A DNA stretch of 32,463 bases from an uncultured Candidatus Saccharibacteria bacterium (GCA_964361655.1 CAYIBD010000004.1:1-32463); one strand, 5' to 3'. Shown: positions 7,936 to 24,720, counted from the stretch's first letter. Made by a program: numbers and translations. Notes: generated from the letters alone by a model not told the origin.

Positions 7936-8751
7936 TTAGCGTGGAATGAGAACGCGTTTGTCGCTCGCCGCGATGAGCCCTTCGCGAGCCATCTGCCGGA
8001 TGATGGCGCGAAAGGCATCTCGAGCTGTAGTCGGCGTAAGGGCGTGTTGTAACGCATTGATTGACCTTGGTCCATCGTGGACAACAGCGGCGAGGATTTG
8101 ACCGCGGAGCTCGCGCCGCGAGCCGGTAAAAGCCGGCTGCGTGGCATAGCCAGCGCTCCGGCGGTTCGGATTTTCGACGTGTTTCAGCGCAAGCGCCCCA
8201 TAGTCCATGAGCGCCCAGTACCACTGGTGGATAGAGCGGCCGGGAAGGGTGCGCTGGATTTCGTGGAGAATTTCTCGATCCTTCACACGGCGACGGCGCT
8301 TGAAGAAAAAGAGGATGTAGACGCGCCGAATGTTGGTCTCGAGAAACGCGACGCGTTTACGGAATGCAAATACGCCAATAGCCCCCGCCGTGGCCGGACC
8401 AATGCCGGGCAGGCGCCGCAGGACCGCCGGATCGCTCGGGATCTCACCACCATAGTCGCGCACGACCGCCGTGGCCAGCCGCTTGAGGTACACGGCGCGG
8501 CGATTATACCCCATTCCCTGCCAAACGTTCAGGATCTTTGCCAGTGGTGCTCGGGCAAGCGCAGGCATGTCAGGGAAAGCTCTCAAGAACTCTGGATACT
8601 TACGAAGGACGCGGGAAACCTGGGTCTGTTGCAGCATGACCTCGGAGACGAGGATTCTATAGGGATCGCGGGTTTTGCGCCACGGGAGGCCATGCCGGCC
8701 ATGATGTCGGTACCAGGCGCGGATGTGCGTTTGGAATTCGGAAGCGGTCAT
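7936..8751 (-). CDS. mutY: A/G-specific adenine glycosylase (HhH-GPD), short form lacking the 4Fe-4S Cys motif
   Basis: LPWRKTRDPYRILVSEVMLQQTQV, WQGMGYNRRA, LPGIGPATA HhH, ALMDYGA. Confidence 0.92.
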   Translation of the reverse strand: MTASEFQTHIRAWYRHHGRHGLPWRKTRDPYRILVSEVMLQQTQVSRVLRKYPEFLRAFPDMPALARAPLAKILNVWQGMGYNRRAVYLKRLATAVVRDYGGEIPSDPAVLRRLPGIGPATAGAIGVFAFRKRVAFLETNIRRVYILFFFKRRRRVKDREILHEIQRTLPGRSIHQWYWALMDYGALALKHVENPNRRSAGYATQPAFTGSRRELRGQILAAVVHDGPRSINALQHALTPTTARDAFRAIIRQMAREGLIAASDKRVLIPR

Positions 8752-11939: not shown

Positions 11940-14526
<2,587 letters not shown>

Positions 14527-14553
14527 CTTGTGTCGAGCCACTAGTGGCTAGTG

Positions 14554-16122
14554 CTAATGTATGGCGCCGGTACGTTTGAATGCCTGGATGGCCGCTTTCA
14601 GCTTGCGTTCCACGGCCTCTTCCAGCGTGCCGGTTTTCCGAATCGGCCCCATGATATCTTTTTCGTGCCGCTTCTCGAGGTAATCAATGAGGCCGGCTTC
14701 AAAGCGCTTGACCTCGGCGAGCGGAACATCGTCCATGAAATCGTTTAGCGCCGCAAAGAGCCCTGCGATCTGGCGTTCGAAGGGCATCGGCTCGCCGTCA
14801 ACTTGCTTCAGGACTTCGGTCAGGAGCTCACCCCGCCGGATGCGCTTTTTCGTGGCTTCGTCGAGATCCGAGGCAAACTGCACGAAGGCGGCAAGCTCGC
14901 GGAACTGCGCCAGTTCAAGCCGCAGCCGCCCCGCCACCTGTTTCATGGCCTTGGTTTGGGCCGCGGAGCCAACCCGCGAGACCGAGAGGCCAACATTTAC
15001 CGCTGGCCGGATGCCCTGATAGAAGAGATCGGAAGAAAGGTAGATTTGGCCGTCGGTGATGGAGATAACGTTGGTGGGGATGTAGGAGGCGACGTCGCCG
15101 AGCTTGGTCTCAATGATGGGTATGGCGGTGAGCGAGCCGCCGCCGTTTCCCGTGTTCAACTTTGCGGCCCGTTCCAGGAGCCGCGCGTGGAGGTAGAAGA
15201 TGTCGCCGGGATAGGCCTCGCGGCCGGGCGGACGGCGTAACAGCAGGGCCAGCTCGCGGTAGGCATCGGCGTGCTTGGAGAGGTCGTCGTAGATGACGAG
15301 CGCGTCCCGGCCCTGATCCATGAAGTATTCGCCAATGGCACATCCGGCATAGGGGGCGAGGTACTGGAGGGAGGCCGGGGCCGATGCCGGTGCCGAGACG
15401 ACAATGGTGTAGGCCATGGCACCCCGCTCCGCGAGGAGCTTTACGATTTTTGCAATTTTAGAATTTCTCTGGCCGATGGCAACGTAGATGCAGATGACCC
15501 GCCTTCGCGCCGCACCGTGCGGTGCTTCGGCCGGCCGGGCGGCGTCCTGGTCTTGATTCAAAATTATGTCGAGCGCGAGGGCCGTTTTTCCGGTTTGGCG
15601 GTCACCGATGATGAGCTCGCGCTGCCCACGGCCAATGGGGATCATGCTGTCAATGGCCTTCACGCCGGTGTGGACCGGGGTGTTCACCGATTCTCGGCTA
15701 ACGACCGACGGTGCGACGCGCTCGAGGAAGTAGTCCTTAGCTGCGGCTGGATTTCGGAAGATCACCCCCTTGCCGTCAAGGGGCTCCCCGAGGGGGCTTA
15801 CCACCCGGCCGATCAGCTCCTCCCCTACCCGAATGGAGAGAACGCGGCCGGTTTTTTTCACGCGGTTCCCGGCGGCCACGGCACTGGCATCGCCGAGGAT
15901 GACAGCACCAATGGCGTTCTCCTCAAGATTGAAGGCGAGGGCAGCCACTTCACCCCGATCGGTCTCTACGGCGAGGAGTTCCTGGCTTGCCGCCTCGCGG
16001 AGCCCGGAGATCTTGGCAATGCCGTCGCCGGCCTCGGTGATAATGCCAATCGCGGCCAACGCCGGTTCGTCGCGGAATCCGGCAATTTCTTTTTTCAGTT
16101 TTTCGACGATCTCGTAAGACAT
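14554..16122 (-). CDS. atpA: ATP synthase F1 alpha
   Basis: [31 protein letters not shown]; start placed at ATG 16122. Confidence 0.99.
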
Positions 16123-16153
16123 CGTAAGAGACGAGGGACTGGCCACTCGCCAG

Positions 16154-16684
16154 TTAGTGGCTGGCGGAGGCAAACCCCGTTAGATCCTCGCCCTGAAGGG
16201 CGAGGCCTTTGTTTTGATTTGAAGATTCACCCTTTTTATCTCCGGCTGGCCCTGTTAGAAACTCTGTTTCTGACGGGGCTTGAAAGCCGTAGCGTCCAGG
16301 ATCTAACGGGGTAAACATTCTTGCCAGTTTCCGTTGGAGCGAATAATCGAGCTCGCGCTCGCCGTCAATGGTGATTCTGACGCCGGCGATGAGCGCTTGA
16401 CGCTCGGCGCTATCGATGTGATCGCGGCGCCCGAACCGGCGGGTCAGTGTTCCGAGGAGTGGGCGGGGCAGGGGACGCGCGACTTCGATCTCGACCCATC
16501 GGCCGCCGGCCTCTCGGACCAGGAGGCGCTCCACGGCGGCGATTATTTTTTCGGCCTCCTCGAGATCGCCGTTCTTTCGGATAACGGCCCAAAAGCGCTT
16601 CACGAGTAAGCCCTGCCTCTGCCGCGGGGTCTTGGCCAGTGCCTTAAGGAATGCCCGGCTATAATCGTCTGGAGCGTACTTCAT
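16154..16684 (-). CDS. atpH: ATP synthase F1 delta (short type) with a 47-aa element-derived C-terminal insertion
   Basis: [23 protein letters not shown] delta C-terminal motif; position between atpF and atpA. Confidence 0.9.
16174..16312. mobile_element. 139-bp MITE-like element with 15-bp terminal inverted repeats, inserted in atpH
   Basis: ACCCCGTTAGATCCT(16174-16188)/AGGATCTAACGGGGT(16298-16312); AA on both flanks; nested related palindrome at 16249-16279. Confidence 0.85.
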
Positions 16685-17187
16685 AGGGCCCGCTCGCGGA
16701 GTAGCCGCTCCGCCCCCTGGACCAACTTTGCATCTACGTCCTTGGGGTCGGCCGCGACCGCCCGCGAAATGGCGTCCCGGAGGAGAGCTCCGGCGTGGCT
16801 CGAAAGGCGCTCGAGCTCCTCTATTCTTCTTCTCTCGGCCACGGCCGCGGCATCAGCCAGGACCTCCTCCCGCTTCTTTTGCGCCTCGGCCATCATCGCC
16901 TGCGCCCGCACTTTGGCGTCTTTCTCGGCCTCACTGACAATGGCCAGGGCCTCGCGGTCGGCCGCGGCCAGGCGTTCGGATTTCAGGGTCTCTATCTCGC
17001 CGAGCCGCCGTTCGGCCTCTATCGCCCCTTTGAGCCCGAGCTCAATTTTGCGCCGCCGCTCGTCTAAGAGCTTAAGCAGCGGCCGGTAGAGGAAGAGCGT
17101 TAAGAGAATGAGGAGGACAAAAAAATTGACCCCTTGGGTGAGAAGGAGCCGCCAGTCAATGCCCAGTTGCCGGAAGAGATCCTGCAT
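16681..17187 (-). CDS. atpF: ATP synthase Fo subunit b
   Basis: LGIDWRLLLTQGVNFFVLL...YRPLLKLLDERRRKI followed by a coiled coil. Confidence 0.95.
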   Translation of the reverse strand: MQDLFRQLGIDWRLLLTQGVNFFVLLILLTLFLYRPLLKLLDERRRKIELGLKGAIEAERRLGEIETLKSERLAAADREALAIVSEAEKDAKVRAQAMMAEAQKKREEVLADAAAVAERRRIEELERLSSHAGALLRDAISRAVAADPKDVDAKLVQGAERLLRERAL

Positions 17188-17279
17188 GACACGAATTCGC
17201 GAATGGCGCATCCATCACACCAATCCACGGATCACGAAGGTACGGCGTTTAGCGCTCGTGTGGATTCGTGGCGCGGCGG

Positions 17280-17519
<240 letters not shown>

Positions 17520-18302
17520 TTAGGCCTTTTGGTGTTCGACCGATGGCTCGCGGTCATGGCCGAGGACGGCCATAGCCGTGAAGACGAGCGTCAACATGGC
17601 GAAGATTAATGCCTGGATGAAGCCGACGAAAATCTCCAAAAAAAGAAACGGGAGGGGTATGAGGTATGGGACGAGGAAAGTGACGACAACCAAGAGCACC
17701 TCTCCCGCAAACACGTTCCCGAAGAGCCGGAACGAGAACGACACTATCTTAACAAGTTCGGAGATGAATTCAAGGCAGCCGGTGAATAACTCCAGCGGAC
17801 TCCGGACGTTGAAGAATTTCCCGAAGTGCTTGCCCGCACCGATGGCAACGACGCCGAGGAGATTGACGGCCAAGACCGAGATTACGGCAAGAGCGATCGT
17901 GAAGTTGAGATCGGAGGCCGGAGCCCGGAAGAGCGGGATCAGCTGGATTGAACCGTGGCCGATCTCGGGAGCCGGAGGCACGATACCAATGGGGCCGACG
18001 CCGGGAAAGAGGCCGAGCCAGTTCGATGTCAGGACGAAGAGGAATATGGTGGCCACGAGCGGCAGGTATTTCTCGGAGAGCGCACGGCTGCCGAGGACCG
18101 CATCCATAATGCCGAGGGTTCCATCGAGAAACAGTTCCGCCACTGCCTGCAACCGCGCCGGGAGAAGGGCCAACCGCAACCGCAGCAGGAGCGCGCCTGC
18201 GGCCAGCAGCAAAACCGCAACGGTTGATAGCAAAACGGCGTTGGTCACCGGCCAGCCCCCAATGCGGAAGATTTCTTCAGCGCGGATGGAAATTTCGGTC
18301 AT
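17520..18302 (-). CDS. atpB: ATP synthase Fo subunit a
   Basis: NWLGLFPG, SFSFRLFGNVFAGE, GFIQALIF. Confidence 0.98.
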   Translation of the reverse strand: MTEISIRAEEIFRIGGWPVTNAVLLSTVAVLLLAAGALLLRLRLALLPARLQAVAELFLDGTLGIMDAVLGSRALSEKYLPLVATIFLFVLTSNWLGLFPGVGPIGIVPPAPEIGHGSIQLIPLFRAPASDLNFTIALAVISVLAVNLLGVVAIGAGKHFGKFFNVRSPLELFTGCLEFISELVKIVSFSFRLFGNVFAGEVLLVVVTFLVPYLIPLPFLFLEIFVGFIQALIFAMLTLVFTAMAVLGHDREPSVEHQKA

Positions 18303-18428
18303 CGGCCTCCACGCTACCACGTGAGCCCCTGAAATTCAATCCGCCCGCATGCACGGCGACTACACCTATTCTCATATTCTCAAGAATAGTGGGATGGCAA
18401 CGGCTTCGCGGTGGCGAGTGCTGTGGCA

Positions 18429-23402: not shown

Positions 23403-24590
23403 CTACGCTTTACCGGCCGGAGGAAAGGGGCTCCTCATCGCGAGCCGCCGGAGGGCGCGGTCTTTGATCTTTGGCTCCCAGCGGGTGCGGCGGACTGCGG
23501 ATTCGAGGATGGCGATGGTTTTATCGTAGGTCATACGGTCAATGGGGTAGGGCGTGGCGTCTTTTCCGCCATGGGCAAAGGAGTAGCGGGCCGGATCTTC
23601 GTAGGAGGGTGCGGCGCCATAGATGACCTCGCCGACGAGGGCCAAGGCCCGCACGGTTTTCGGCCCCACGCCTTCCATGGCCACCAGTTCCTCGTAGGTG
23701 CGCGGCCGGATGCTCGTGACTCTGGCGAGAATTTTTTCGAGGTATTGGCTTTTTGAGAAATCTTCGTGAACAACCGGATGGCTCCTGAATTCAACATCCT
23801 CCAGCTTGAGCAGGGTCAGTTGCTCGCCGCTGCCACGGTGTTTGAGGGCGAGGACTTTAGATAGCGACGAGGAGTGTCGGCGCAGGATTTCAATATCCCT
23901 CATCAGCGAGCCGTAGCTCGAGTTCGCCATTTCTATTGAGAGGTCGCGTGTCGGGTCGCTTTCTCGGGCGACGAGATTCAGCACCGTGTCGTGTCGGGCT
24001 TGGGCGGCAATGCCGGTATGCGGCTCACAGACAAGGTCTTTGGCGTTCTCCGAGAACCAATGGTAACGCCGCGCCGTGCCGGCATCGGTATTCATTCCCT
24101 GCTGGACCACGGCCCAGGCGCCGTTTTCGGAAAAGAAAAAGATATGGTGATAGAGCTGGTAGCCGTCCTGGACAAGGCTGGAATCAACTTTAGCGCTCAT
24201 CTTGGAGTTGTAGACCAGGGCCTGGGTCTTGGCCTCACCGAGATCGAGCCGCCTCCCCCACTCCGTAATTTGGTCCGGCGTTTTTCGAGATGTCTTGCCC
24301 TTGCCGCCGGCAATGAAAATGCCGAGCGCCCGTTCCTCGCCCCGGACGGCTTCTTTCAAGGCCGCGGTCAGGATGGTGGTCAAGCCGCTTGCGTTCCAAT
24401 CGAATGCGAGCACCGTCCCGAGCGATTGGAACCATACTGGATCAGCGATGCGCTTGACAAACTCATCCGGCCCATACTCCTCAATGAGGATGCGAGTCAT
24501 GTCGCGGCCGAGCGTTACCATGCGGGAAAACAGCCACTTGGGGCAGCGGCCGGTATCGAGCGTCATGGTGGCGATACCGCGATGGATCAC
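23403..24590 (-). CDS. DUF763 domain protein
   Basis: DP.WFQSLG.VLAFDW.ASG.TT, AGGKGKTS, AKVDSS.VQDGY.LYHH, GVGPKTVRAL HhH, SFAHGGKD. GTG start lies 6 nt after TATACT. Confidence 0.92.
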   Translation of the reverse strand: MIHRGIATMTLDTGRCPKWLFSRMVTLGRDMTRILIEEYGPDEFVKRIADPVWFQSLGTVLAFDWNASGLTTILTAALKEAVRGEERALGIFIAGGKGKTSRKTPDQITEWGRRLDLGEAKTQALVYNSKMSAKVDSSLVQDGYQLYHHIFFFSENGAWAVVQQGMNTDAGTARRYHWFSENAKDLVCEPHTGIAAQARHDTVLNLVARESDPTRDLSIEMANSSYGSLMRDIEILRRHSSSLSKVLALKHRGSGEQLTLLKLEDVEFRSHPVVHEDFSKSQYLEKILARVTSIRPRTYEELVAMEGVGPKTVRALALVGEVIYGAAPSYEDPARYSFAHGGKDATPYPIDRMTYDKTIAILESAVRRTRWEPKIKDRALRRLAMRSPFPPAGKA

Positions 24591-24720
24591 GGACAAAGTA
24601 TACAAAAAAATCGCCTTGGCGGCTATTATTTCGATAGCGGAGCGCTGGTGCTCAATATGCCGGCGGAGCGTAGACGGTGAAAGAGCGGAGGGGTTCTTCT
24701 CGTCTCGTCCTCGCCCCAGT

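Follow-up and report, generated by a model that had tools for sequence, protein, structure and literature searches.

The atpH gene of an uncultured Candidatus Saccharibacteria bacterium from groundwater encodes an ATP synthase delta subunit in which 47 residues near the C-terminus are bounded, at the DNA level, by perfectly inverted ends. This raises the question of where the 47 codons came from and whether they are translated or somehow removed before the protein is made. The host genome comprises 668,566 bases (0.67 Mb), and the window analysed here is a stretch of 32,463 nucleotides (GCA_964361655.1, CAYIBD010000004.1:1-32463). The atpH product matches the Pfam OSCP family (PF00213) over residues 10-123 with 29.2 bits (cut-off 22.3), and its neighbours in the atp operon are ATP-synt_B, alpha, gamma, beta and subunit a. 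The features of the locus are as follows.

16154..16684, minus strand: atpH (ATP synthase delta / OSCP) ORF, 176 aa including the 47 inserted, 129 aa without the insert
16174..16312: composite hairpin element with inverted ends, 139 bp, consisting of a subfamily copy of about 106 bp and a nested mini element
16174..16188: left 15-nt inverted end, starting with the 11-nt terminus common to the family, ACCCCGTTAGA
16298..16312: right 15-nt inverted end, fully complementary to the left one
16172..16173: 2-bp flanking duplication, copy 1, AA on the plus strand and TT on the coding strand
16313..16314: 2-bp flanking duplication, copy 2, AA on the plus strand; on the coding strand within the TTT codon of the conserved F124
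16249..16279: nested 31-bp mini element, slightly decayed, arms 16249-16262 and 16266-16279, 86% complementary
16186..16205, plus strand: internal hairpin with a 9-bp stem followed by a T-rich run, terminator-like only on the plus strand, which is antisense to the atp operon
16172..16312, minus strand: the 47 added codons, residues 125-171, TPLDPG...DLTGF, a low-confidence unstructured tail in the predicted model
14554..16122, minus strand: atpA (alpha), ATG at 16122-16120, 31 nt past the atpH stop and 52 nt past the element
17523-18320, minus strand: ATP synthase subunit a, atp operon
16681-17211, minus strand: ATP synthase subunit b, atp operon
13582-14541, minus strand: atpG (gamma), atp operon
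12176-13585, minus strand: atpD (beta), atp operon

The inverted arms are complementary in 15 of 15 nt (100%) and have 109 nt between them, giving an element of 139 bp that lies 15 nt (5 codons) ahead of the atpH stop codon. On the coding strand the junctions read ...ATG TTT / ACC CCG TTA GAT ... CTA ACG GGG T / TT GCC TCC GCC AGC CAC TAA. The insert on the minus strand amounts to 141 nt, or 47 codons with no stop among them, and excising these 141 nt leaves a delta subunit of 129 aa that ends in ...LARMF-ASASH. Each strand of the element has one open frame out of three. Folded as RNA, the element forms a long stem at -62.3 kcal/mol compared with -37.7 +/- 4.2 for 200 shuffles (z = -5.9). The measurements given in the first-pass annotation (perfect 15-bp TIRs, 139 bp, a 2-bp AA/TT duplication, 141 nt and 47 in-frame codons) are confirmed on the sequence, and its description of the element as MITE-like and non-autonomous agrees with the inverted ends, the 2-bp duplication, the further copies described below and the lack of enzyme-coding capacity. 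At 139 bp the atpH copy lies within the size range of MITEs, which are shorter than about 300-500 bp, its sole open frames are the two that read through it, and neither of them has the capacity to encode a transposase.

The delta subunits of the whole clade are short, 120-134 aa in the window and in the relatives (L011-L031). The delta in the window covers only positions 54-168 of the 172-position OSCP profile, and the usual N-terminal part seems to be missing.

A protein search in 40 related genomes (41 with the present genome, G000) gave some match in 23 of the 40. There are 21 full-length delta matches, in 21 of the 40 genomes, and the alignment ends at query residue 124-131 in all of them. 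When the ORFs of these relatives are read out, 19 of the 21 end 1-5 residues past the conserved F and one ends after 10; the delta of G002 has an unrelated tail of 34 residues past the same F. An atpH site empty of the element is present in 21 of 21 relatives, and neither of the two circumstances named in the first-pass annotation as fatal to an insertion, a TIR unique in the genome and a stretch of 47 aa conserved in relatives, obtains. For query residues 114-173, a stretch made up of the end of the delta core and the insert peptide, there are further matches in translated DNA at other positions of G008, G010 and G002, and the insert is therefore present at other loci in other genera. A search of protein databases with the 47-aa peptide returned only its own protein among longer proteins, although a word-based search is weak for a short and variable query.

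The DNA of the G002 tail (L012:1870-1935, at the 3' end of atpH) is an imperfect palindrome of about 50 bp with a CCCCGCAGC...GCTGGGGG core. This tail may stem from a further hairpin insertion that took place independently at this position.

It could be argued that delta inherited the 47 residues from an ancestor, or that the join is an assembly error, but nothing speaks for this beyond the open frame and its probability is practically negligible. The stretch is absent from the delta of 21 of 21 relatives, the element DNA recurs at unrelated loci, and the contigs of other runs agree to the base. These runs come from two studies, and over the element and its junctions their contigs show 0 differences; the range 15700-16687 is contained in a single contig of X2, and both junctions are crossed by contigs of X4 and X5. 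An identical atpH with the insert is also found on a separate metagenome contig (L279), the sole metagenome-contig relative found. A contig of run X6 from the second study is identical over 16173-16667 and then continues leftwards with different sequence, which could be a strain variant or a repeat-induced join.

The exact 15-mer end occurs three times in the genome, as the two ends in atpH and at C3:9232. The same subfamily is represented in this genome by a further copy of 98 bp at C24:10392-10489 and by a remnant of 40 bp at C3:9207-9246, and the three copies are 82-95% alike. With a 143-bp DNA query, matches are obtained in 5 of the 11 other genomes of the family (two other genera), with 11 matches in G002. 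An alignment of 8 copies from four genomes shows a conserved interior of about 106 bp and a block of 33 bases that is private to the atpH copy. These extra bases are present because a mini element of 31 bp is nested in the larger one. The mini hairpin has the same kind of ends and sits in the loop region of an internal hairpin of the larger element. It is free-standing in this genome (C3:19406-19436) and in L040, L052 and L053, it is nested at a different point in another subfamily copy (G010 C29), and in L037 and L042 it occupies the middle of shorter elements. The length of 139 bp is thus explained by nesting, which is a behaviour of mobile elements. Both increments, 106 + 2 and 31 + 2, are divisible by three.

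The 11-mer terminus is far more widespread than this subfamily. It is found in 53 of 62 genomes of the order, with up to 77 occurrences per genome (~1 Mb) compared with 0-2 for a reversed-pattern control, and in 117 of 201 sampled genomes of the class, with up to 155 per genome. The present genome has only 3+3 exact 11-nt termini. Matches to the plus and minus terminus pair at distances of about 90-140 bp. In G038 there are 22 paired elements in 20 loci, belonging to subfamilies with unrelated interiors and with lengths of 70, 101-107 and 136-140 bp, together with two composites of 207 and 210 bp. A scan for paired ends was made with one genome per species, and the matches listed (L098-L177) carry the labels of at least eight phyla. 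Among the matches listed are many Patescibacteria-type MAGs, Saccharibacteria, Omnitrophota, delta-proteobacterial orders (Desulfobacterota-type) and Planctomycetota including Brocadia, and also MAGs labelled Thermodesulfovibrionia/Nitrospirota, Edwardsbacteria, Stahlbacteria and Gammaproteobacteria. Only the ends are common to the copies from other phyla, as in G038. The breadth in terms of phyla is provisional because MAG labels and binning can err. The paired-ends pattern has 0 matches in 2.9 million viral contigs.

The family has been mobile in recent time in other genomes. G038 carries a species-private insert in a helicase gene, and G255 has three near-identical copies of 96 bp at three loci (L103, L104, L130) as well as six termini within about 125 bases of contig starts. 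The first-pass annotation went further and took the system to be active in the present genome, and this does not follow from what is seen there, namely copies that are 82-95% alike, 3+3 exact termini and no empty allele in the contigs of four runs or in L279. The missing empty allele says little either way because contigs drop rare variants.

The insertion site was characterised from 105 non-identical elements with exact ends. A 2-bp direct repeat flanks 71 of the 105 (6.6 expected; 15 and 16 in one-base-shifted controls) and a 3-bp repeat flanks 1 of 105. The duplicated pair varies, with TT/AA in 29, CA/TG in 21, GA/TC in 14, others in few and TA in 0 of the 105 copies. The repeat is itself framed by T and A in 138 of 142 symmetrised cases, and the target is therefore T-NN-A. 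The atpH site, T-TT-G on the coding strand, fits this target on one side. The 2-bp repeat is missing in 34 of the 105 elements, and many of these have TTY...RAA flanks; a simple staggered-cut model leaves them unexplained.

Insertion also appears to be directed by sequence, as supported by independent insertions at one helicase site. A DEAD/Helicase_C gene (Pfam) is occupied at the same V/D codon junction, between helicase motifs II and III, in G000 and in G038. The copy in G000 is 64 bp (C12:11670-11733) and the copy in G038 (L246) is 103 bp with a different interior, and the two genomes belong to two families of the order. The junction is empty in 27 of 30 orthologues, including the nine family relatives that were read and G060, which belongs to the genus of G038. 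The helicase of G057 has an insert of 24 residues at the V/D junction, without recognisable ends.

In L057 (G038 C1:102645-102854) two head-to-tail elements share a single TG (...CGGGGT-TG-ACCCCG...). This arrangement is as expected if the end of an element, together with its flank, is itself a preferred target.

Most copies of the family are intergenic. When an element is counted as in-gene if an ORF is open for at least 75 codons on both sides, 6 of 100 elements with at least 250 bp of flanking sequence are in genes. All 6 have a length that is divisible by three when 2 is added, and the other 94 are split 35/31/28. The three in-gene copies of the present genome add 141, 66 and 42 bases and are all open, so that the total of in-gene copies that keep the frame is 9 of 9. 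The smallest of the three is the remnant at C3:9207-9246 (L240:78-782, minus strand), by which the leader of a pilin-like protein is lengthened by 14 residues. The prepilin N-methylation motif of this protein is weak, scoring 18.4 bits where the cut-off is 21.2. This remnant regenerates the G-F ahead of TLLE, and the cleavage-type motif is kept. The family ends leave the frames TPL[D/E]...LTG and PVR...SNGV open on either strand and have a stop in the third frame only.

The 9 of 9 in-gene copies that keep the frame argue that such copies are translated. A filter on both length and stops is expected if the ribosome reads through the element and is not expected if the element is cut out first, and the two open frames of the ends also favour read-through. 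The atpH copy on its own is weak evidence, as it would fit in frame by chance in about 1 of 3 cases (given an added length of 141, which is divisible by three, and 2 open frames among 6). With the insertion only five codons from the stop, an insert bearing a stop might also be tolerated at this position.

The observations on frame also bear on the suggestion that the element is removed, either from the mRNA in the manner of an intron or intervening sequence or already at the DNA level in most cells, so that a normal delta of 129 aa is made. The ends can pair into a long stem that brings the junctions together, and taking out the element and one duplicated pair does give a delta of normal length. 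However, copies removed in this way would be under no constraint on length or frame, and yet 9 of 9 in-gene copies add a multiple of three bases and are open, while the other copies have no bias in length. Rfam, ribozymes included, has no family that matches the atpH copy or 20 others: the region 15900-16600 gives nothing at the gathering score (best E 0.16, 15 bits), and none of the 20 copies from other phyla gives a match at E <= 0.01. No contig joint skipping exactly 141 bases is found in the four runs, which speaks against removal. Removal is therefore highly improbable.

The explanation that we prefer, with a probability of roughly 0.8, is that a MITE-like hairpin element has been inserted in frame in atpH, where it is translated as a probably disordered tail and persists as a survivor of selection. 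The insertion of a non-autonomous hairpin element would have separated the codon of F124 from the five terminal codons of atpH, with duplication of two bases of a T-NN-A type target in a coding sequence that probably read ATG-TTT-GCC before the insertion. The element would consist of a subfamily copy of about 106 bp and, in the loop of one of its internal hairpins, a second family member, the 31-bp mini element. Since the 139 + 2 = 141 added bases make up whole codons and the frame used is open, the ribosome would read through. The delta subunit would gain a probably disordered tail of 47 residues followed by the native ASASH and the stop, and the downstream start of atpA would be left untouched. 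The atpH copy would be what selection has let through and not a designed addition. The enzyme that moves the family is presumably of a cut-and-join type with a 2-bp stagger.

The consequence for the protein was considered with a predicted model of delta based on an alignment of 20 sequences. Residues 1-110 have a pLDDT of 85-97, the last helix (114-123) is at about 62, and residues 131-176, which make up most of the insert and the native tail, are at 48-59 and without secondary structure. By this model a tolerated and disordered C-terminal tail on delta is the likeliest outcome. Transcription of the atp operon should not stop at the element, because the terminator-like hairpin is on the antisense strand. 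As a speculation, a very stable stem located 52 nt ahead of the atpA start could affect the handling of the mRNA.

It is conceivable that the tail has been co-opted, for example in contacts of the stator or in regulating or assembling the small F1Fo of this lineage, and that it is now under selection and not just tolerated. The inverted ends are still perfect (15/15) in spite of the decayed mini element nested between them, the insertion is present in all contigs that cover the site in runs of two studies, and G002 has independently gained a different tail of 34 residues past the same conserved F. Perfect ends are, however, equally compatible with a young insertion, and 20 of 21 relatives manage with 1-10 residues past the F. 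The tail is also predicted, with low confidence, to be unstructured, and no other protein with the tail peptide was found. We consider co-option to be quite improbable and retain the reading of a tolerated insertion.

Repeat-derived peptide had been proposed in the first-pass annotation for four of the eight ATP synthase subunits. This number can be reduced to one firm case, atpH, and one possible case, atpA, with no support for atpG and atpD. A blastn-short comparison of 12100-18400 with the whole genome gave convincing repeats for the atpH element only. In atpG and atpD there is no indel private to the present genome in comparison with 4-5 relatives of the family, and only the first ~20 residues of atpD are unaligned. 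The atpA gene has a private insert of 10 residues at about 15505-15534 (minus strand) that is absent from the atpA of 8 aligned relatives. Its DNA contains a 6+6 palindrome resembling the ends of the CCCCGCAC-type hairpin family of this genome and has no repeat match with blastn-short. This is suggestive of a repeat-derived insert, which appears weakly repeat-like from its sequence.

A 32-bp repeat match in atpG (E = 0.003) turned out on inspection to be a low-complexity match of the GCTGGTAGCTGG type.

The statement in the first-pass annotation that the mobiliser is not in the window stands, as no transposase or recombinase family was found in the other 29 ORFs of the window or in the 5 atp ORFs. 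Searches for candidate enzymes were made in genomes rich in elements: Y1_Tnp, DDE_3 and DDE_Tnp_1 in G130, G070, G038, G122 and G026, and rve, Resolvase and the TnpB zinc-ribbon in G255, G130, G070, G038 and G002. DDE_3, DDE_Tnp_1 and the TnpB zinc-ribbon are each present in 0/5 of these genomes, rve in 2/5, Resolvase in 3/5 and Y1_Tnp in 4/5, and none of the six families is present in all five genomes searched. Element ends do not adjoin the rve or Y1 genes that were inspected. In G038 no long copy bounded by the ends, as would be expected of an autonomous parent, was found; of the 20 unpaired termini examined in this genome, most have a partner with one mismatch at a distance of about 100 bp, and the others adjoin ORFs of ordinary appearance. 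In G255 two inverted copies flank an ORF of 693 aa with a signal-peptide-like start, which is not an enzyme. No autonomous parent with the same ends, of the kind that supplies the transposase of a MITE, came up in this non-exhaustive search.

The distribution of Y1_Tnp calls for a comparison with REP/REPIN systems, in which single-stranded hairpin DNA would be moved by a RAYT-like Y1 (IS200-type) tyrosine transposase and the 2-bp repeat would be a cleavage-site motif carried by the element and not a duplication from a staggered cut. Y1_Tnp is the sole common family of the six tested, with 1-5 copies and ORFs of about 230 aa in the four genomes that have it, and Y1 is present in 125 of 201 genomes of the class, with one gene in the present genome (C26:1893-2606). 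A single hairpin of 31 bp as the smallest family member, and a repeated pair framed by a fixed T...A, would also suit such a mechanism. The association with the elements is nevertheless not real: in a hand tally Y1 occurs in 37 of 53 genomes with at least 6 termini (70%) and in 88 of 148 with fewer (59%), and 16 element-rich genomes are without Y1. One of the genomes without a match to the Pfam Y1 model is G038, with its 77 termini and species-private insertion, and the Y1 protein of the present genome used as query finds nothing in the element-rich G038, G100, G153, G188 and G004. Around the four Y1 genes inspected, no element ends occur for about 1.5 kb, and the ends are not short palindromes, unlike REP units. 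A Y1-driven system is therefore unlikely, and insertion by a cut-and-join enzyme with duplication of the target remains the preferred reading.

The likeness to REP/REPIN-RAYT systems lies in hairpin repeats that are mostly extragenic, and in genomes that have a single or few Y1 (IS200-like) genes outside the repeats. The differences are the missing association with Y1, ends that are not self-palindromic and a flanking duplication of 2 bp.

The closest analogue by behaviour is the Rickettsia palindromic elements (RPE). Passages of a 2024 review (PMC10969869, citing Ogata 2000 and 2002) present these as the extreme case of in-frame fusion of MITEs and place them mostly in ORFs. As far as those passages go, the two have in common that palindromic repeats of about 100-150 bp are in frame in unrelated housekeeping genes of a reduced genome, adding peptide, and that for neither is a mobilising enzyme known. 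In contrast to the RPEs, which by the same passages are mostly in ORFs, about 6 of 100 sampled copies of the present family are in genes. The hosts also differ, a groundwater genome of 0.67 Mb and many other phyla compared with Rickettsia, and the likeness is one of behaviour. The clear 2-bp duplication, the T-NN-A target and the nesting are further differences from RPE.

The Correia element of Neisseria is small, with inverted ends and a 2-bp flanking duplication, and has many copies that are mostly intergenic with occasional disruption of or fusion to genes. The present family resembles such classical bacterial MITEs in size, inverted ends, 2-bp duplication and many mostly intergenic copies. 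Unlike in Correia-type MITEs, the duplicated pair is not fixed (TA 0/105) and the interiors are unrelated between subfamilies. Compared with classical MITEs, only 11 nt per end are constant, and this across at least eight phylum labels, and no parent insertion sequence was found. In filamentous cyanobacteria there are very small, nested and dispersed hairpin repeats of tens of bases that share ends, insert into each other and occur in genes without a break of the frame. The units are similar to those described here; the sequence and the hosts differ. Strain-dependent disruption of coding sequences by the Correia element is described in passages of the review cited above (PMC10969869).

Stretches of 7 nt inside the ends of the element fit consensus words of the integron attC site. 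This candidate was rejected because the order is opposite on both strands to that of attC sites, which have the inverse-core site 5' and the core site 3' of an imperfect palindrome. A 77-bp inverted repeat in Porphyromonas, the subject of PMC3969353, came up for the terminal 10-mers and no link is claimed.

The open literature yielded no description of such elements in candidate phyla radiation, Patescibacteria or Parcubacteria; subscription journals and preprint supplements were outside this scope. The family behind the atpH insertion may be a more interesting object than the single insertion. We put forward tentatively, and with the odds somewhat against it, that this is an undescribed hairpin family of many phyla, characterised by invariant 11-nt ends, a 2-bp duplication in T-NN-A, nesting and independent insertion at the same codon junction. 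It would be moved by an enzyme other than the usual ones, possibly a conserved host-encoded structure-specific nuclease or recombinase, and would be a recurrent source of peptide in essential proteins (ATP synthase, SF2 helicase, pilin leader) of ultra-small genomes, which have next to no intergenic DNA. If true, this would be a second and independent case of the 'protein-coding palindrome' phenomenon of the Rickettsia type. To judge from passages of PMC10969869, selfish palindromes that sit in frame in essential genes have until now been regarded as peculiar to Rickettsia, and the same behaviour is now seen in a minimal groundwater genome. If it holds, the family would offer a tractable system for how essential proteins tolerate and recruit inserted peptide and a marker of recent genome change in uncultured lineages, and the hunt for the mobilising enzyme would be opened.

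The present genome has further hairpin families, one with CCCCGTTACAA-type ends (51-112 bp, flanked by TC/TC) and one with CCCCGCACCAATTTTGC-type ends (~146 bp), and both share the tip ACCCCG with the atpH family. The loci of the two families are C1:30624, C3:20942, C7:13272 and C7:16175; and C5:24950, C23:10918, C28:227, C30:7392 and C42:17. In an aldolase-like ORF (G000 C26:1321-1410) that adjoins the only Y1 transposase gene of the genome there is a CCCCGCACC...GTACGGGG stretch, read through as ...EAPHQSKLGTGQAG..., which is possibly another in-frame hairpin insert.

For annotation, unusual extensions or insertions in the proteins of these genomes should be regarded as possible products of mobile elements. 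In the window, the HhH-GPD protein (7939-8751) and the DUF763 protein (23406-24605) match their Pfam profiles over a length that exceeds the corresponding part of the profile by about 28 and about 27 residues, respectively, and these are possible further inserts.
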